A stretch of 64,000 nucleotides of DNA. It comes from Podospora anserina (Eukaryota). Every line of letters starts with the position of its first letter. The first letter of the stretch is position 1. A program made the translations under genes and the position numbers. The stretch spans positions 3,720,001 to 3,784,000 of the forward strand of contig CM030333.1 in assembly GCA_017654855.1 (NCBI GenBank), in the 5' to 3' direction. Below are positions 10,246 to 53,500 of this stretch, piece after piece. The notes under the pieces were generated by a model. The model searched no databases, was not told where the DNA came from, and worked only from the letters and a program-made list of their open reading frames with translations.

Positions 10246-11336
10246 ATGCTCTCCTCCATCAAATGGCCCTTCCTCTCCTCCTCCTCCTCCGAGGAAAAGA
10301 AACCCACACCCCACCCTCACATCCAACCCCACAAGCCCATCCAAACCAAATACGTCTCCCTCCCCGTCGACATCCCCCCCTCTTTCCTCTCCCTCACCCC
10401 CGACCCGGCCCTCGTCCCAGACGCAAAACCAATCACCTTCCACCCCCTAGACTGGACCTCAACCGCCATCCCCGAAAACAAGGGGAAGCTAGCCTTCATC
10501 CTCGAAAACGTCCTCTCCCCTTCGGAATGTGGCCAACTGATCGAGTACGCAGAGGAATCAGTACCGCTGGATAGCCCGACCGCCGCCTCTGGCGCAAACA
10601 ACGGACCCTGGAGCCCGGCGCTGGTGAATATGGGCCCAGGATTCGAACTTTATGAGCCGAGCTACAGGCGGAGCGACAGGATCATTTGGGATACAAAAGA
10701 AGTCGCGGACAGGATTTGGGAGCGGTGTTTGAGTGTGGAGGGGTTGAGGAGGGAGATTGAGGTTATACAGGGGCATGAGAGGATCAAGAAGGTGACGGGG
10801 CGGGGGGAGTGGCACGGGGATGGGGGGAGGGGGAGGTGGGTGATGAGGAGGATGAATGAGCGGCTTAGGTTTCTGAGGTATGAGAAGGGGGGGTTTTTCC
10901 AGCGTGAGTGACACTGATGAAGGTGGAAGGGGAACACGAATGGGTGCTAATGAGGATGACTATAGCGCATTGTGACAGTGCGTATTATGCTTCGATGGAT
11001 AAGGAGCAGGTTGTCAAGACGTTGCTTACGGTGCATATTTACTTGAACGATTGCAAGGCTACGGCCGAGGACCCGGACAGTACTGAGTTGGTGGGCGGGG
11101 CGACGACGCTGTTTAGCTCGGATGAGAAGAGGAGGTACGATGTCGAGTGCAAGGCGGGGAGGGTGTTGGTTTTTCAGCACAGCGCCGTGCTGCACTCGGG
11201 GGATGAGGTGAAGCAGGGGGTCAAGTTTAGTGTGAGGAGTGATGTTTTGTATGAGCAGGTTTTGGCGAAGGAGGAGGAGCAGGAGGAGGCAGAGGAGGAG
11301 GCAGAGGAGGAGGAGGAGGGTGAGGGTTCAAAGTAA
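10246..11336 (+). CDS. 2OG-Fe(II) oxygenase, prolyl-4-hydroxylase-like
   Basis: MNERLRFLRYEKGGFFQP|HCD (HxD formed after removing intron 10904-10965), TVHIYLND, GGAT, distal His in LHSG, KFSVRSD. Confidence 0.88.
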
Positions 11337-11629
11337 GGGATGTATGTTTACGGCGTCCCAAATCAGTATTTTGCAATGGAAAGGTACCTAAGGGGGTGTT
11401 TATAACAAGCATGTTGGTGTTGACCCCTAAAGCCCCCTGAAAACGCCAAGGTTTAGGTGGGGTGAGTTTAACTTCAGTTGCTGACCGCTCCCCGCATTTC
11501 AACCATCTCACTCACCCTCACCCTCATCCTCACCCTCACCTTACACCACCAAGCTCTCGCATCTCACTTCACCTATCTCTCATCATCCTTCTCTCCTCCC
11601 CATCTCAACACCCCCCCAACTCACCCACA

Positions 11630-27634: not shown

Positions 27635-28549
27635 CTACCTCTTCTTAACGCTGGGTCTGGGCTTGCATTCGTCCGGCTGCACCGGGTGCAGCATGACCTT
27701 GTTAGGGTACCCAGCTGTGTTGCCCTGGTAGCCCTTGGCCCAATCGTAGCTGATAGCGTACGCAAATATGCTGCCGGTCTTGTTGAACGTCGTGGCAGCA
27801 ATGCTACCACCGACATTGGGGTACCCTTTCAGCCTATGCTTGGCGTCCTTATCCCAGAAGTGGAATGTGCCATCGCTGCCCGCGGTGCTGAAAGTGCCGT
27901 GGACGGGATGGAAAGAGATATCGTTGACAGCATACACGTTGGTGACGTTGCCCTGTGGGGGATCACGGTGGCACTTGAACGAGAAGTTGAGGCTGGGCGG
28001 CACGTGTTAGCTTCCTGGACCTTCACTTTGCGGCGAGAGTCGAGATCCCAAACTCACCTAGCATCCTTGTCTTCGACGTATTGAATGGCGCAGCGACCTT
28101 CAATACTACCAATGGCGAAGCCCATCGAGTCGGTAAAGCAGCTCACCACCCTCGTTTGCCACTTAAGCGGACTTGTGATCGTCTTGTAGAACTTGGTTGG
28201 ATCCTTCAGGTTGATGACGTTGATGTATCTCTCGGCTGTCCCTATCACCAGGAGGTCGTTTCGTACGTCCATGGTGTACACACGTTCCTGGCACGTTACG
28301 GTCCCGACTGGTGTCTGTTGCCGGAAGTCCCAGTACTTGATGGTCTTGTCCCAGGAGCCTGTTACGGCCATGGGGGTGCCGCTGTTTTCGAAGTAGCGAA
28401 CGGCGCGAACGGGCTGGTCATGTTGCGCAAACTGCATGGTTTGACTGGTTGCAAGGTCCACCACCTTGCCCTGTTTGTCGGCGCCTCCAGAGATTACTTT
28501 TGTGCCATCCTTTGAGTGAAATCAGCAACTGTGAAAATGTGCCAAGCAG

Positions 28550-28580
<31 letters not shown>

Positions 28581-28861
28581 ACTCGCCATACCTTGAAAAA
28601 GTCCACCGAGAACACCGGCCCATCGTGGTCGTACGCGACTCTTCCCTCTCCCTGACCATTGCTCATGATCTCGTAGATCCGGACCTTCTTGTCCCAACTG
28701 GCTACCGCCAACAGATCTTTGGTATCGGCCGGGTTGGGGTTGAAAGCGATGTCGGAGATGCTATCTTCTGGGCCATTGGCGAGCGCGACGTCGTTCTTCA
28801 AGTCTCCGAGGGTGTTACTCGCCGACGCAGACGACGTGCCAGATGAGAAAAGGCCTGCCAT
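27635..28861 (-). CDS. GLE2: mRNA export factor Gle2/Rae1 (WD40 nucleoporin)
   Basis: VTGSWDKTIKYWD, SPLKWQTR, GSIEGRCAIQY, FSFKCHR, FWDKDAKHRLK and SYDWAKG; introns 28510-28591 and 27993-28057. Confidence 0.95.
28550..28579. repeat. (ACCAGA)5 hexanucleotide repeat inside GLE2 intron 1
   Basis: Read directly; it explains the spurious GSGSGSGS in the ORF track. Confidence 0.9.
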
Positions 28862-29322
28862 TTTTGGTCGTGGGCGTGGCTACGCCGGAAAAAAAAACAC
28901 TTCGCTGTTTGTGTCGAGACTATTGCGCGGTCGATCAAGGGCTTCGCCGGGTATCAAAGATAGAATAGGAAGGGAAATTGTTCAGGTGGTTGTAAAGTTG
29001 TTCGAGAGATGGGAACAAGTCGCAAAAGTTGACAAAGATTCCGTCGTCAGGTTCGCGAAGGCAGCTGCAGCACAATCCGACCAGAGAGCAAAGCAACGCG
29101 CCAGTGCCTCTCGCCAAGACAAGTACCCGAATGCGTTCACTTGCACCAGCCTCACGAAAGAGCTTGGGCCACCACCAGATTCACTTGCTCTTTGTAGCTC
29201 GAATCCCACATGCCCAGCCACAACACACACACCCCACTGAGAGCACGAAGCCCCACTAAAAAGTTATCTACTTTAAAAAAAAATTCCACCATTCCCACTC
29301 TTTTTCGCTTTCCTCCTTTCGC

Positions 29323-29877
29323 AAGCACCCTCTCGCCCGACAAATCGCTATTCGAAGCTCACAAACGGAAAGATTTCCCTTCGGGGCATCTCTTTCACAA
29401 TCACCACACAGCTTTGGGAGAAAGTCCCCGGACATTGCCGAGCGTGACTTGTCACGATCGGTGTTGCGGAAACGCGCCGCCACAGAAGCACAGCGGCTGA
29501 TCTCTATTTTTTGCCCGCCTTGTTCCTTGTCTTTTTTTCTGTTTTCATTGCCCGGCCTCATCACACCCAAGTCGACTTTGATTTCGCTTTTCCCCATGAG
29601 CTGGGTTACTTGTCTGTTTTGCGAGGCTGGAGACCACATGGACGAAGATATGAGTCCGCGCTCTGTGCTGTTCGGGATGGGCTCGTCTTGGTTCCTCTGA
29701 GGTTGGTGGATCGGGTCGATGGTGGGGCTGCCGTGGTGGCAGACGTCGTGGCTGGGAACGTCATGGCGCGGCTGGAGAATTTTCGTCACGATACCACAGA
29801 TATGCGATTGCCCATCTCTCTCGAAAGAGGGGATGGAGTTACTCGACGGGGCTTATTCTCGGTGCGAGGGGGTGCTT
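29323..29877 (+). ncRNA. NME1: RNase MRP RNA (NME1/RMRP homologue), about 555 nt
   Basis: CR-I GAAAGTCCCCGGAC (29420-29433) and CR-V ACGGGGCTTATTCTC (29846-29860) form the P4 pseudoknot. P1: AAGCACCCTCTCGCCCGA (29323-29340) pairs with TCGGTGCGAGGGGGTGCTT (29859-29877). P2: AATCGC/GCGATT. P3: AAGCT (29355)/AGCTT (29410). P19-like hairpin at 29812-29836. Confidence 0.9.
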
Positions 29878-30046
29878 CAACACAAACCTTGGTTACGTTT
29901 TGCCTCTGTCGACCTTGAAGGCTAGCCAGCATGGACGAGCCGAACACTCTGGGCTTCACTGGAGGTCACCTTTTTTTTCGTTCCCTGTTGGTTGGTCTGC
30001 TTGGTTGCTGGCATCTGGGGGCTTTTGAGGTCTGGGGGCTTTGCAG

Positions 30047-30135
30047 TCTACATGATGAGAACCACTAAAAGTCAAGCTCTGAGGTGCCAAAAGGTCCCGT
30101 TGATGACTTAAAATGCGTTATGGTATCTGACTGAC
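30047..30135 (+). ncRNA. snR66: Box C/D snoRNA, snR66-like (LSU rRNA Um2417-equivalent guide)
   Basis: Box C ATGATGA 30052-30058, D' CTGA 30079-30082, C' TTGATGA 30100-30106, D CTGA 30127-30130, terminal stem CAGTC/GACTG. The D' guide AGTCAAGCT(C) is complementary to LSU GAGCUUGACU, and its fifth nucleotide pairs with the second U. Confidence 0.85.
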
Positions 30136-30327
30136 TGTCAAAGATTTTGTTCTATTTGTTCTTGATATTATTAGATAGAAGTGCGCTGTGCTCTAAATAT
30201 GCAGTGTCTATGCCTTGTGTGTACGAGCATTGTGAGGCCTGTTGAAGTCTCGCCGTCGCCAGTTTTCCCAATGCTGTCGTTTCCAATTCCCATGTACGGT
30301 TGAAGTCTCAGGAAAGCAAGAACCACA

Positions 30328-31749
30328 TCACTTCTGAAGCTTTTCCTCCTTCTTGCGCTGTTCCTCTTCGAGAAGCTCTCTCTCCTTATGAGCGGCCTCG
30401 ATGTCGGCCTTCATGCCCTTGGCCCTTTGACGAGCTTCGTAGAGGTCTCTGCTCTTCATGATTCTTTGGACAATGGTACCGGCGTTGACTTCCTCGAATT
30501 CGTGGTGGCCAATCTCTCTGTAGATGCCCATCTCCTTGGGAGCCGCGTACACATCCTTTGTGGATGGCATAAATGATGTTGGGCCGTGGTAAACGGCATC
30601 GGGGGTGCTCCATGGGAACTTGGCCAAGTACTCCTTGGTAGGCTCGAAGGGGGCGCCGAAGATGACGGCATTGACGTACTAGATGATCATGTCAGTCAGT
30701 CGATCTGGAGGAGGAATGAGATGATGAGATGTTACCCTGCATTGCAGAACGCAGAGGCCGCGCTCGTAAATGTTCATGATGGGGTAGTTAACGCCCTTCC
30801 ACTTGTTGATGACATCGTCGTCGTGGACGCCAGCCGCCACAAACACCGGGCCGTAGTCCTCTCCCTTGCCCTTGCGCTCGTTGACGTTCTGCTCCGAGTA
30901 CCAACCGTCCCCTCTGGCGAGCTCCTCCTCAGCTTCAACCACCATCTTGAGGAACTCGATGTGGCCGCTGGAGAAGAGGTCGAAACCACCATCGACGTAC
31001 ACGACCCGTTGGCCAATCTTTGGCCCGATACCCCCAAACAACTTGTCGAACCCATTCTCCCCTGACCAGAACCAAACCTCCACACCGGGCTGCTTGGCCG
31101 TCTCATCCGCAGCATACAGCCTAATCCTCTCCTTCATCGCCTCGCCTTCCTTCTTCCTCTCCTCCGCTGTTCCCGGACCCTCCTCACCCTCGAGCGTCTT
31201 TTGCAGCGACTTGATGAAATGCCCCCTCGTGCAAAGCAGCATCCTCCCAACCAAATCGGTAGTGGAGATACTCGGCGTCCGCTTCACAACCTTGAACCGA
31301 TCGGCCGCCTTGACAAAGCGGTAGCAGTCCTCACCGCTGCCGTCAGAGGTGATGTCGTCGCCGTGGACAACGTACTTGCAGCCGTAGTGGGTGATCCAGT
31401 CCAGCTGGGTGACGTAGGGAGCGTAGGGGATGGACTTGGTGACCCAGCGGCAGGCGTCGGTGGCCATGAGGCGCTCCTTGAGGTTCATGACGGTGGGGCC
31501 CTTGTTTTCGAGGATGGCCTCGTCCGAGTGGACGCCGACGTAGAGCTCGTCGCCGAGTTGGCGGGCCTGGACTACGGCGCCTGCGTGGCCTATTATTGCA
31601 TCATCAGAGGTGAACGGTAGAGGATGGTATGGGTGTGGGGGAGACTGACCGTGGTGGAAGAAATCAAAACAGCCATCTACCCAGAGACGGCCCTCGAGGA
31701 GCTCAGGGGCTGGCTCACCAGGGGGGTTGACGGGATCGGTGGCGCTCAT
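30328..31749 (-). CDS. ECT1: Ethanolamine-phosphate cytidylyltransferase
   Basis: Two cytidylyltransferase domains (WVDGCFDFFHHGHAG; YVDGGFDLFSSGHIE), KGPTVM, RTPSISTTDLVGRMLL, YPIMNIYERGL; introns 31590-31649 and 30679-30735. Confidence 0.93.
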
Positions 31750-32806
31750 GGCTGGTGACACAAAAGGAGTATGTTGTTGGGGAGTGTTTGCGTTGCTGGG
31801 TGGTGGCCAGGAGTGGTGCTTGTGACTTCAAAAATATAACCGACGGAGTCAAATAGCAGCTACAATGGAACCCAAAAATTCAACTGTAACTAACAAGAGA
31901 AGATGTTGTGGAATGAAAAGCACAACATTGGCAATCAGACCCTAAAGATGTGTTTAATTGCCCAGGAAGCCAATTTGGGCATTGAGTGTCTGCCCCTCCA
32001 CCCCTCCTCCTCGGCTGGCCCCTCCCCCACCTTCGGTGCAGCGATCTAATGCAGGGACTCAAACTGCCCGCGCTCATCTCAGATCAGGTTGGCCTCTCCG
32101 AGTCCCATCTTCGATCACGGGAGGACGGGAAACAGGAGGCAACAGAGATATCTATAAGGTATGGGAAGAGTCGGGAATCCTGGACATGGACCAACCTTGC
32201 ATCACCATCCATGTTTCAGAAGGGTCGACCGCTGGACAACCCCAACTGGTTCCCCGGATTTTCAACTGCCCTCAACCCAGGGAAAAGACGCGGCCGCTTG
32301 AGCTAGCGGCTGATGTGCTGCGACGATTCAACGTCAATGCCCTGGCGGCGGCGAGTTCGCGGTTCTGGATTTGACAGACGACGGTCGAGATGGTGTTCAG
32401 GCGGGTGCCCGTTCGTCGTCACCTGCATCAGACGGCATGGGGAACCCCCTGGACACATGCGGCCGCCTTACTCTCCCGGCCATGTGCTTTTTTTGCTACG
32501 ATGGAGAGAGCTTTGGTAATGGTTTAAGAAGCACGGCTGTCCCTTCTTCGTCTCTTTTCTTTTGTCTCTGTGTATCGTCAACACCATGGACATCACCATA
32601 TCTTGATATCCAACCCCTGTCACACCACGCCTACGAACCCTGTCAGCGGAACATAGGGGACTGCTAAAGCATCCAACAGCTCCTGCCGGATCCAGGGCGC
32701 TAAGGTATCCCCAGCAAATGGCGGCGCGTTGTTGCCCTTGTGCCTTGCCCAAAGAGGTCATTTTCGCACACATCCCAGGAAAGAGGAAGCAGTGAGACTG
32801 TGAGAC

Positions 32807-34411
32807 ATGCAGCGCTCGGGAGCCACACCGACGCAGACGGCCGCGCCCTTTTTCGCGTCCCTGTTTGGCGGCGGTCATCACTCGTCCAACTCCAACTCCA
32901 ACTCCAACTCCAATTCGCACTCGCACTCGCACTCGCACGACGACCCCTCGTCGCTGTCTCCCACCACCAGGAAATCTCCGGGAAAATCCATCAGGTCGCT
33001 CTCCCGTCCCACCAGCTCGGGCGTCGACGCCGCCGGTGACACAGGGGCTAGTCCAGCCCGGCAACACAACGTTCTCCACAAGAGCCGCGATCGCAGGCCC
33101 TCATTTGGTCGCAAGCCCTCCTTCTCCTTTGCCTCGTCCAGCTCCCCGAAGCGCCGCGCAAACTCGTCGTCGTCGGCCAATGGCGCCGCAAGACCTCCGG
33201 CCATCCAGCTCTTCCCCGACACCGACAATCCCGTGCCTCCGCTCCCCAACTACGCCCTCGCCCAGGCCGTGAACAAGTTGTCGAGAGAGACCGACGCCGT
33301 GCTGTCATCCCCCACCTCGACCCCTGAGGGTTTCTCCAAGATGCTCAGTCGCACGACACCCGCGAACGGCCAGCTGGCTCCCCCTCCTGTTCTCCAGGGC
33401 GGAAGCAGCAGTGGCCAACCGAGCGAGCTGAGCGTGGTGCACCAGCATATTCAAGAGACGGCGAATAAGAGGATATCGACGTTGGACTATCTGCGCAAGG
33501 CGTAAGCCCCCGCTCCACTATCTGCCATCTCCAAACCACATCACTGACACTTGTCCCGTTTGTTTTCCAGCCACGAAGGCCGCATCTACTGGTTCAACAC
33601 CCTCCTCTTTGACAAACCCGACCTCCAACGCATGCCTTATTTCGATCCACGCAAACTCGCCCGCCGAGCCACAAACTACCTGCTGCTTGGAATCTCCCTA
33701 CCAGCAGTGATAGACCTCAACAGCAGCAACGCTGTTGAATTCCTCAAATCCTTCAACACCCTCCTCACAGAATTCGACTCGTTTCAGCAACTCCACTCCG
33801 AATCAGGCGCTTCGTCCTCTTCGTTGTCACGAGCGAGAATACCACAGATGTTCCGCCGCGCTGCCGGCCCTGCCAAGACAAGACGATCCTCCAGCGCGAC
33901 CACGGCGGCGGCAGCGGCGGCGACGGCATCGCTGGCCGGCACAGCAGGGGAGTCCTCCCTCGGAGAGCAGCAACTCGCTCAGCTGGAGAGTCTGGCGCTC
34001 ACACCATCAATCACCAACACCTCCACCACTTACCCGGGTGTAGGATCAGGAACGGTCAACGTCACGCATCCAGCGTCGATTATGAACTTTGCGGGGTCCG
34101 AGATTGATTTACTTCCCGGGGAGGAGTACACCCACCTGCTCACGCCAAGTCTGCCGTTTGACCCGGACTTTTTCGAGACGTTTGCCACTTTGTGTGATGT
34201 CTTGATTGATACGTACACGAGATTGCTGGGGCTGCTGCCGAGTCCGAATCATTGTGGGGGGAGCGTGGCCGAGTTGTTTAGCAAGGCGGATGGGAAGGTG
34301 AGGAAGTTGTTGGTTCAGGGGGTTGTGAGGGAGTTTGAGGAGGGGACGAGAGCCGGGGTGAAGAGTGAGGTTGCGAATGTGGGGAAGGTGGTGTTGAGCG
34401 GGTTGATGTGA
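32807..34411 (+). CDS. Hypothetical fungal protein with a disordered N-terminus and folded-looking C-terminal blocks
   Basis: Intron 33502-33570 joins RISTLDYLRKA|HEGRIYWFNT; later block LPFDPDFFETFATLCDVLID. Confidence 0.88.
32888..32937 (+). repeat. Coding hexamer repeats (AACTCC)n then (CACTCG)n, encoding NSNSNSNSHSHSHSH
   Basis: Read directly from the sequence. Confidence 0.9.
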
Positions 34412-50593: not shown

Positions 50594-53500
50594 TCCTGTC
50601 AGTCTGTGGAGCTGGAGATCGACTGGTTTCCTATATGCCGACTCCAGGTGCCCCTTCTCGGCATGTTCTCTCCTTCACCGATGTATATATATGGGGGCTG
50701 AGCCGACAAGAAATATCATGTAAGTGGTGGCGAGAGTATTCGCTAGGTGGGGGTTGTCGTTAGCACAGTGAGTTTTCCTGGTTGATGGCGAGCCTCAGGC
50801 GTCGTCTTGGGAAGTTTGACAGGACGCGAAGAAGGGAAGCTTGACAAGTAGGTGGTCGCCTTATGGCTGGAATGGTTGGCGAGATAGTAAGTCGATTTTC
50901 TGGGGTGCATCAAAGTGAGCCGCCCCCGCAGACAGCGTAGCACAGCACAATAAACTGGGGATCGGGGAGTTTGGTAGAGAGGGAGGGTCAAGTATGGGAC
51001 GAGTAATTGGTCAGGGGCCGGCTTGTCAGACAGGATGATGGGGCGACTACCCCGGATGGAAGGTTTGATTCTGGGGAGTCCCCCGGGTGGAAGACAGGGG
51101 AGGCTACAGTGTAAGTACCTAGGCAGGTAGGCTTAGAGCCGATGACGGGAGGTGTGTGGCTATGAGATGGATTGTTGGATCGCCAGTGAGTGAACGGATA
51201 ACTCACATTCACCCTCCCCATCTAGAGCTTGATCCTCGGCCCTTTTTGCTGAAGGAAAACACAATGTCCATATGATGATTGGGCGGCTGTCTCCGAGCAT
51301 CTGAAACTAAGAGCTAGAGCCGGCAGTGGCCGTTTAAAGACGAGATGTCATAAAGATAAATGTGACCGAGGATGATGTCGAGGCCTGAGAGGCAAGGAAA
51401 CCATGATGTTCAATTCCCACAAGAGAAGGTAGCAGCCCAACCCAGCGGGGAGGGGTCAGTGGAAAGATGTTGGCCAACACTGGAACTTGAGAAGGCACGA
51501 TGTGTGTGGTGCGGGGAGGGGACGATGCCGGTGAGTTGAAGGATGAGTGGGGTTGGAGAAGTGGGAAAGAGCTCCGGGGAGTTGGTGGAGACGATACACC
51601 TTACGGAAAGCTGTGTTTTTCGGGAATTCCAGTTTGTCCCTAGGCGCTGCCAAAAGCAGAATGGGTTCCCAGTTACAGCTTGTCCTTGCCCCCTTCATCC
51701 CATATTCCCTCCCGTCCTGTCCAGCAGTTTGGTGGTTCAATGGAGTTTAACAGATTGAAAAGGGATGAAATTTCATCCTTGATCCCTGTATGTAACGGCG
51801 GCCCCACAGTACCACCTCCGCAACCGACGGCTTCAGGGCCCGCCATCCACAAGCCGTTGCTCTCCACCCCAGGGTCACTGTGACCACTTCAGGACGTCGA
51901 CGACCTTCTTACTCTTGATTTGTATTCTTTAAACGCGCACCTTTTACCACTTCAAACATCGCCAGAAAATCAATGTTCTTCTCTCAACTTATTTACCGCC
52001 TCCAAAACAGCGGTGCCCAAGAGCTGTCAAGGGTCCTTCCTTGTCTTTCTTTGGTACCGCGAAGTCAAGATCCAACTGTGATTCAGGAACGATGTCCATT
52101 GACGGGAACCCGATATATGAGGGGAGTATTCAATGCTTCCTCGCCTCTATCCCGTCTCGACTTAAGCTCTCTTCCACGGCAATTGCTTCTGGGGGGCAGG
52201 TCACAAGCACAATGTGACGCAGCGTGACCGCTCGCTGGGCCTCTGGAGCCGCCTTCTGTTTATATACTGACGCTTTATTTCATATTCTGGTCGAGCTCTT
52301 TGGGCTGAAGCTGTGCGTCACAGTGAGGGTGCAGCGACAACTTAGGGGTCGCAATATCTTGATGTTTGCCGCGCCAATTACAGCTCACTGTTCTACAGTA
52401 ACTGTTGATCTTGCCCGGCTGGGCTTTCTATACCAACCATATCAGCCAGGTATATCCTAGCTGTCGTCAATATCGAGACTGTGTCCCGGGTCGCTGCACC
52501 ATGGGAGCGAGACACCCGAGGTCGAATACTTTCAAGTCCTCTTTCCGCATTACATACAAGGACGGGGACCATGATACGGCCGAGCCTGCTGTTCTCAGGA
52601 ACTGAAGAGCGTTGAAGGTGCCGTTCGCTTAAGCAGCAAAACCCGGAACCCCCTGCAACCCGCGACCTTCACCAAATCTAGCCCCTTGCAAGATCGGGCT
52701 CTGGTCCCTAACGGTCGGCGATCCTTGGCAGTCTACGGACGATCGTCTCCCGAAATTCAACCCAGCTTCCTCGCCTCTTCCCTCACCTCGACCATGAAAT
52801 CACCTCTTCACCGCATCACCACTTGCTTTCAGAACACCGCGAGCTTCATACTCTGGCGTAGCACTCTTTATGGAGCTCTCAAGCATCTTTGCTCCAGTGA
52901 CCGCTTCAGGTTGTCGTCAGACAGTTACACTTGGTCACATTACACCTCCCCATTGCTGTTGCATGGCTGGGGATAGCATCAAGAATCATCATCATATTGT
53001 CAACTACCGGAAGTTCGGAACCGAGACTATTAAGCAAAGACCGGCATACCAACCATGACATGCCTCGATTCGGGGCCGTTTAAGCTCTGTATCAGTGCAG
53101 ATGTCCCCAGCAATTACGGTAAGGTAACCCGTCGAGCATGATGAAGATCAAGCCTCTTCTTGTTCTTGTTCTTGTTGTCGATCTTTTGCTTATACCCAGG
53201 AACCAAGCTCTTGTGCCTTGCTGTTGCTTGCCAGCCTAGACCAAGCAGCTCCGGTAGTTCACTGACCGCAGCCTGCCTTCCATATACCGGGTGTATCCTG
53301 CAGGCGGAGATGCTGGTGCCGAGCGCTAAGGTCAAGTAAGTGGGCACACTTCCTGCTTGATCTTCCAGGTTTGTGCCGTACATATTCTCGTTCCTCGTCC
53401 CGCGACACCTATCGGTCCGAAAATCTCTCCGTCGTCTGCTTGTGCTCAGGTCAGGAGCCCTACAAGCCCGGATTGTCGGGAGGCTCTCCGGCTTCGACTT

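Follow-up and report, generated by a model that had tools for sequence, protein, structure and literature searches.

Here, I report that a gap without protein-coding signal in the genome of Podospora anserina almost certainly carries the gene for the RNA of ribonuclease (RNase) MRP, followed on the same strand by the gene of a box C/D small nucleolar RNA (snoRNA), the putative counterpart of yeast snR66. The stretch of DNA analysed, hereafter the window, is 64,000 nucleotides (nt) long (assembly GCA_017654855.1, contig CM030333.1, positions 3,720,001 to 3,784,000) and all coordinates count from its first letter. RNase MRP is a ribozyme that cuts the precursor of ribosomal RNA (rRNA) in internal transcribed spacer 1 (ITS1). 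As an annotation, the result places two RNA genes of essential pathways in the gap; its interest lies in the linkage rather than in either RNA, for budding yeasts, CTG-clade yeasts, a dermatophyte and this fungus of the Sordariales share the order, the strand and a gap of about 150-250 nt, while the neighbouring protein genes change. The best explanation is that both are ordinary non-coding RNA genes of known kinds and that their linkage dates from early in the history of Ascomycota. That the linked RNAs are, in addition, transcribed by RNA polymerase II as a single unit completes a statement which, taken as a whole, is about as apt to be right as wrong.

The identity of the upstream RNA is carried by RF00030, which gave the sole match at the Rfam gathering threshold in the whole window (29330-29869, + strand; 86.4 bits against a curated cut-off of 50 bits; E 1.5e-22). 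The alignment runs over the model from position 1 to 266 of 266 and is not truncated, RF00030 outscores the other families of the RNase P/MRP clan, and a more permissive E-value scan of the whole window returned the same match at 29330-29869. The MRP RNA that the original prediction had recognised from the letters alone is thereby confirmed, and so are its limits, 29323 and 29877, which mark P1 at its greatest possible length and extend the Rfam core to a gene of 555 nt on the + strand. In this helix 29323-29340 pairs with 29859-29877 through 18 pairs (17 Watson-Crick and one G-U by script count), with one bulged base; its outer 14 nt were recovered independently by the repeat finder as an inverted repeat (I3). 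The RF00030 alignment further contains a P2 helix of six Watson-Crick pairs (29343-29348 with 29804-29809), a P3 hairpin domain in which model positions 22-66 fall on 29351-29416 with high posterior probability and few non-canonical pairs, and two motifs that match the consensus exactly, namely CR-I (GAAAGUCCCCGGAC, 29420-29433) and CR-V (GGGGCUUAUUCU, 29848-29859, in a CR-V region spanning 29841-29859). By my own reading, guided by the known architecture of P4, 29422-29429 could pair with 29848-29854 in a P4 pseudoknot of 7 base pairs (bp) with U29425 bulged. At the sequence level the score, P1 and P2, P3, and CR-I and CR-V all agree with RNase MRP, and there is hardly any doubt that 29323-29877 is its RNA.

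The middle domain of this RNA is large, variable and poorly aligned to RF00030, and the total length is 540-555 nt. Both properties are consistent with the MRP RNAs published for fungi, which measure 339 nt in Saccharomyces cerevisiae, 907-991 nt in the Candida parapsilosis group and 2226 nt in C. albicans (PMC5033589), and for which large extra helices have been reported in domain 2 among Pezizomycotina (PMC3879985). MRP RNAs have already been described in Neurospora crassa, Podospora, Gibberella and Coccidioides (PMC1636426).

The downstream RNA, at 30041-30141 (+), has the complete layout of a box C/D snoRNA: box C (AUGAUGA, 30052-30058), box D' (CUGA, 30079-30082), box C' (UGAUGA, 30101-30106) and box D (CUGA, 30127-30130), the last directly followed by an extra CUGA at 30131-30134. 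The terminal stem joins 30041-30048 to 30133-30141 through 8 pairs with one bulge, and with this stem the RNA folds at -24.4 kcal/mol (z -1.86), a stability matched by 6 of 200 shuffled sequences. When 29870-30300 was compared with 4227 Rfam families, snosnR66 (RF00477) ranked top, aligned at 30043-30138 (+) over the full model, positions 1-104. The guide together with the D' box, AGUCAAGCUCUGAG, is identical to the Rfam snR66 consensus; this 13-mer has one occurrence in the window, an exact one, as against 0.09 expected with up to one mismatch. The pattern C...D'...C', in which box D is not included, has two occurrences against 0.07 expected. The other one, at 10841-10920 (+), lies in a very G-rich stretch, shows no evident box D or terminal stem by eye, has no Rfam match, and is probably due to chance.

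Upstream of D' the guide forms 9 contiguous bp (AGUCAAGCU, 30070-30078) with the 26S target of N. crassa, the species that supplies the rRNA partner since the window contains no ribosomal DNA. It is complementary to the large-subunit (LSU) rRNA site AGCUUGACU, with A30074, the fifth base upstream of D', opposite a U; at the tenth guide position an A stands opposite a C, so that the duplex ends at 9 bp. The claim that the snoRNA targets LSU rRNA is upheld by this pairing, and its length had been overstated by one pair, as the tenth base is the first of the D' box. The position targeted by yeast snR66 I take to be Um2417. In N. crassa, Nc CD2 is a cloned C/D RNA of 99 nt from chromosome V, listed as homologous to the snR66 of both yeasts, with a D' guide directed to 26S-Um2379; its duplex, as drawn in the supplement, involves the 26S rRNA sequence 5'-AGCUUGACUCUA-3' (PMC2780460). 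The snoRNA in the window pairs with the first nine bases of AGCUUGACUCUA, and it would guide the 2'-O-methylation of one U of LSU rRNA, the counterpart of N. crassa 26S-Um2379. Upstream of box D, where a second guide is possible, its sequence differs from that of Nc CD2 by eye.

Several points tell against assigning this RNA to snR66. Its snosnR66 score is 24.3 bits against a cut-off of 65, with an E-value of 0.15, which leaves it below the threshold of Rfam membership; the E-value is corrected for 4227 families, and had only one pre-specified family been tested it would, by my own arithmetic, be near 4e-5. The contiguous guide is 9 bp long here as opposed to 12 in Nc CD2, and the snR66 homologue of Trichophyton rubrum was given no predicted target by its authors' program, according to the tabulated data (PMC3890542). 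The prediction of an snR66-like snoRNA is sustained by the top-ranking family, the boxes, the stem and the guide, and falls short in the score. The RNA is best regarded as corresponding in function and position to snR66 and Nc CD2; it does not qualify for the family at the Rfam threshold. It is probably, with good confidence, an orthologue of snR66. Large Ascomycota snoRNA alignments that include snR66 exist (PMC3116282).

The linkage was compared through published coordinate tables. In C. parapsilosis, the S1 Table of PMC5033589 lists RNase MRP at 609869-610859, followed in the same direction by snR66 at 611016-611099, with a gap of 156 nt; the same source gives MRP and then snR66 on the same strand in C. 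orthopsilosis (gap 164 nt) and C. albicans (146 nt), and both on the reverse strand in Lodderomyces elongisporus (245 nt). In T. rubrum, Trnc_1008 (RNase_MRP, 419 nt, 41 cDNA clones, i.e. clones of complementary DNA) is located on supercont2.10 at 748640-749058 and Trnc_1010 (snosnR66, 87 nt, 80 clones) at 749220-749306, both entered with the lower coordinate first and hence on the same strand, 161 nt apart (Additional file 1 of PMC3890542). In S. cerevisiae, the gene list of PMC9731477 has YNCN0013W (NME1) adjoining YNCN0014W (SNR66), between SSN8 and KSH1, in agreement with what the original prediction had stated of yeast. MRP-then-snR66 is the order in six of the seven other species with positional data in these sources; the seventh is N. 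crassa, for which the available part of PMC2780460 places Nc CD2 only as 'chr V, intergenic' and gives no position for the MRP RNA. In the window the two RNAs are 173 nt apart by the Rfam limits and 163 nt by the helix limits, on the same strand, which agrees with the spacing of about 170 nt proposed beforehand.

The recurrence of the same order in the published tables supports a conserved linkage, and since it extends from yeasts to T. rubrum, the proposal that the pair is shared by Saccharomycotina and Pezizomycotina is borne out as far as these tables go. The protein genes flanking the pair in yeast differ from those in the window, which indicates that the two RNA genes moved as a unit; likewise, the proximity of MRP RNA to GLE2, found here, is not common to yeast, where the listed neighbours are KSH1 and SSN8. 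It is highly probable that the linkage was inherited. Both RNAs are of known kinds, and anyone consulting the annotation of yeast, or at least two supplementary tables in print, can already see the tandem. The depth of the conservation and its cause may be under-reported: the published sources on NME1 or MRP RNA and snR66, in the parts available, yielded no comment on the linkage, and the main text of 'The fungal snoRNAome' (PMC5824354) has no occurrence of snR66, MRP or NME1.

As to how the pair is expressed, I infer the polymerase, a single promoter, a spanning precursor and a processing route from the features that surround and separate the two RNAs. A motif scan found an A-rich, TATA-like tract (TTT and then nine A; 29272-29283, +), 40-51 nt upstream of the MRP 5' end, which is a candidate promoter core. 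It holds the one TTTAAA, at 29272, and is the sole TATA-like element in 29200-30330, where the scan found no TATAWA; it falls in a trough of GC content upstream of the MRP RNA (0.275 at 29260-29299). Past the snoRNA, an AT-rich tract at 30140-30185 (+), with one UCUUG at 30160, has the lowest GC content in 29100-30400 (0.20 at 30140-30179) and would be a candidate termination zone for a unit. These are the sole strong AT-rich troughs and they bracket the RNA pair, the spacer between the two RNAs ranging from 0.45 to 0.63 in GC. The single TATA-like element ahead of the MRP RNA and the troughs on either side of the pair favour a single unit. Polymerase II would start shortly downstream of the A-rich element and transcribe the MRP RNA, and at least some polymerases would read on across the spacer, pass the snoRNA and reach the AT-rich tract. 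A cut in the spacer would then separate the two RNAs, and exonucleases would trim them to their mature forms, halting at ends bound by protein: in the MRP RNA at the long P1 helix, in the snoRNA at the terminal stem and the C/D kink-turn.

The choice of polymerase is informed by the MRP gene itself. Polymerase III terminates at T runs, and the motif scan found two of them, T6 at 29507-29512 and T7 at 29532-29538 (+), in the variable domain of the MRP gene. As these would truncate a polymerase III transcript, they argue, as far as the letters of the gene can, for polymerase II. In yeast, a preprint on Mediator describes robust occupancy by polymerase II at both NME1 and snR66 (10.1101/352906). 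A precedent for a common transcript comes by analogy from the conserved snoRNA tandems of fungi, which would favour a polycistronic reading of MRP-snR66 as well; in N. crassa, co-transcription of CD16-CD37 has been demonstrated although each gene has a putative promoter (PMC2780460). RNase III (Rnt1p) and other nucleases are cited as acting on yeast snR66 (PMC4334505), from which it follows that 5'-extended precursors exist, although their start site is not fixed thereby.

The spacer (29878-30040, +; 163 nt, GC about 0.54) offers less to the single-unit model, and it is here, as well as in the literature, that the evidence weighs against it. The fold of the spacer is no more stable than that of shuffled sequences (z -0.21, with 81 of 200 shuffles equal or better). 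The longest AGNN-capped stem in it has 3 bp, so there is no RNase III stem of the yeast type, with the proviso that RNase III rules in Sordariales may differ; nor did the motif scan find a canonical 5' splice site in it. The absence of a processing signal in the spacer weakens the single-unit model, though the structure of the spacer was discounted as evidence in either direction. Two exact 12-nt direct repeats, TCTGGGGGCTTT, lie upstream of the snoRNA at 30014-30025 and 30031-30042 (+), with starts 17 nt apart, the second copy ending where the terminal stem begins; the only further copy in the 64 kb, at 11429-11440 (-), has one mismatch. These repeats are possibly a factor-binding or processing element, and they could be a promoter element of the snoRNA's own. 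Turning to the literature, MRP-snR66 is not named among the five polycistronic snoRNA clusters of S. cerevisiae in the background section of PMC2780460, or among the five counted for CTG-clade yeasts in the available text of PMC5033589; the intergenic C/D genes of N. crassa, Nc CD2 included, are treated as independently transcribed, from putative promoters upstream of them (PMC2780460); and the Mediator preprint hyphenates snR190-snR128 and lists NME1 and snR66 apart (10.1101/352906). A literature search for an MRP-snR66, or NME1-snR66, precursor found no such description in the sources available, some relevant older papers lying outside its coverage, and the statement in the original prediction that the yeast pair has been described as co-transcribed found no match in that literature.

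A separate arrangement was also considered, namely a snoRNA borne by an intron, as is usual in Pezizomycotina. It is rejected because no GT[AG][ACT]GT occurs between the MRP RNA and the snoRNA.

The explanation to be set most seriously beside a single unit is that the same two RNAs are separate polymerase II genes, the MRP transcript ending in the spacer and the snoRNA promoter lying within its 163 nt; I rate this as somewhat short of an even chance. Adjacency would then be kept by a short spacer so full of essential signals that rearrangement breakpoints are rarely tolerated in it. The clusters and the N. crassa promoters cited above speak for two genes, as does the fact that the yeast preprint assigns NME1 and snR66 each a window of its own, based on transcription start sites (10.1101/352906). 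So do the 12-nt repeats abutting the snoRNA (30014-30042), which, with one other near-match in 64 kb, fit a factor-binding site, while the processing of yeast snR66 by Rnt1p and other nucleases (PMC4334505) fits a 5'-extended precursor of the snoRNA's own equally well. Yet the spacer is devoid of any TATA-like element and of an AT-rich trough, the order, the strand and the short gap (146-245 nt where measured) have been kept in six other species while the flanking genes change, and all other fungal snoRNA tandems of such wide conservation are co-transcribed, as presented in the available text of PMC2780460 and PMC5033589. With these points on either side, I regard the proposition that the MRP RNA and the snoRNA form a single transcription unit as evenly poised.

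Two further explanations fare much worse. Animal MRP RNA is a polymerase III transcript, as is that of plants, and the MRP RNA of the window might likewise be made by polymerase III and end at a T8 run in the middle of the spacer (29971-29978, +), 94 nt past the MRP 3' helix, the snoRNA being an unrelated polymerase II gene. The T6 and T7 runs would however stop the polymerase before the 3' half of the ribozyme, and yeast NME1 is occupied by polymerase II (10.1101/352906), which makes this explanation very unlikely. The repeat finder pairs the T8 run with the T7 tract inside the MRP gene (family D4, 29531-29543 and 29970-29982, 85% alike). The other possibility is that the MRP RNA alone is a working gene and that the sequence resembling a snoRNA is either a relic, in decay or without function, or a match by chance. 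A score far under the Rfam cut-off (24.3 versus 65 bits), a contiguous guide of just 9 bp and a modest fold z-score (-1.86) could be so understood; the four boxes, their spacing and the 8-bp terminal stem are nevertheless all intact, the guide and D' 13-mer occurs in exact form and only once in the window, the predicted family tops 4227 Rfam families, and expressed homologues occupy the same position in T. rubrum (80 clones, PMC3890542) and yeasts. A relic or a chance match is, on this account, most improbable.

The gap is flanked by a protein gene on either side. Upstream, stop-to-stop frames and PDB matches delineate exons of a WD40 gene for an mRNA export factor of the Rae1/Gle2 type (27635-28861, -). 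Its 155-amino-acid exon at 28054-28521 matches the PDB 'mRNA export factor' chains 4owr and 3mmy with E about 3e-35, compared with 5e-19 or weaker for other WD40 proteins. Its start codon (28861-28859) is 461 nt from the MRP 5' helix and the gene is divergent from the MRP RNA, so that the head-to-head arrangement with GLE2 foreseen in the original prediction is correct; the bidirectional promoter that the two genes were suggested there to share is conjectural. Downstream, the exons of an ethanolamine-phosphate cytidylyltransferase gene (30328-31827, -; frames, and PDB 3elb with E 5e-54) converge on the snoRNA, the stop codon (30328) lying about 187 nt from its end; the best named relatives of this protein are from Cercophora samala (89%), Podospora fimiseda (82%), Cladorrhinum and Podospora australis, all Sordariales. 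A protein-coding reading of the gap itself was rejected, none of its four long open frames coming near the Pfam cut-off (best E 0.075 and 0.084).

A few other features of the window are recorded here. An exact 11-nt direct repeat, GTTGAAGTCTC, at 30241-30251 and 30299-30309 (+), 58 nt apart, falls between the snoRNA and the stop codon of the cytidylyltransferase gene, probably in the 3' untranslated region (UTR) of the latter. Short tandem repeats at about 28540-28600, which read SGSGSG or PEPEPE in frame translations, lie in the Rae1/Gle2 region, probably in an intron, and others at about 32830-32930 read NSNSNS-HSHSHS or VGVGVG. A match to eiav_FSE, a retroviral frameshift-site model, at 51057-51083 (-) stays under its cut-off of 40 bits, with a score of 24.3 bits and E 0.19, and is most likely due to chance.

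What the locus would mean depends on its transcription. If the two RNAs are independent genes, it is an ordinary, correctly identified pair. If they form a single unit, a ribozyme and a snoRNA would join the few polycistronic RNA genes that fungi have conserved since ancient times, and the case would bear on the making of MRP RNA 3' ends. A stronger version is that MRP-snR66 is an obligate two-gene polymerase II unit predating the split between Saccharomycotina and Pezizomycotina, in which the MRP RNA has no terminator of its own and acquires its 3' end by cleavage and trimming of a transcript that does not terminate until past the snoRNA; this I consider rather doubtful. Were it true, the outputs of an rRNA-cutting ribozyme and of an rRNA methylation guide would be mechanically coupled in a ribozyme-snoRNA 'operon', a kind of unit absent from the fungal polycistronic clusters named in the available text of PMC2780460 and PMC5033589.

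Among the known systems close to this one is the NME1-SNR66 pair on chromosome XIV of S. cerevisiae, where, according to the published annotation, the same two RNAs are adjacent on the same strand. It differs from the window in the length of its MRP RNA (339 nt versus 540-555 nt, the middle domain being much larger here), and in its flanks (KSH1 and SSN8, as opposed to Rae1/Gle2 and the cytidylyltransferase), and the yeast-derived snR66 model gives the snoRNA of the window a score of just 24.3 bits. The snoRNA has a further relative in Nc CD2, also from Sordariales, with the same guide core on the D' side and a similar length (about 96-101 nt). By eye, the version in the supplement of PMC2780460 also has in common the C box followed by GAGAA.CAC, the guide and D' box followed by GUG, UUGAUGACU at C', and AUCUGA at D; it differs in pairing with rRNA over 12 nt instead of 9 contiguous nt, and the snoRNA of the window has a shorter internal stretch from D' to C'.

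The T. rubrum pair is a similar arrangement, also in Pezizomycotina, with the same order and strand, a gap of 161 nt compared with 163-173 nt, and separate mature cDNAs. T. rubrum belongs to Eurotiomycetes, however, and in its table (PMC3890542) both RNAs are annotated as '3'UTR' of a nearby gene and the snoRNA is listed with no predicted target. The CTG-clade yeasts again share the order and the orientation, with gaps of 146-245 nt, and depart from the window in their MRP RNAs of 907-2226 nt; in the tables of PMC5033589 both genes are marked just 'Syntenic' and 'Non-genic exon'.

Lastly, the polycistronic clusters of the type of snR190-U14, which corresponds to CD16-CD37 in N. crassa, are short same-strand tandems of ribosome-biogenesis genes that persist from yeasts to filamentous fungi, each made as one polymerase II transcript according to the sources cited above. 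They consist of snoRNAs only and are mostly intronic in filamentous fungi, whereas in the window the upstream partner is a ribozyme RNA and the snoRNA is not flanked by splice sites. By analogy, clusters of the snR190-U14 type are the working model for this locus.

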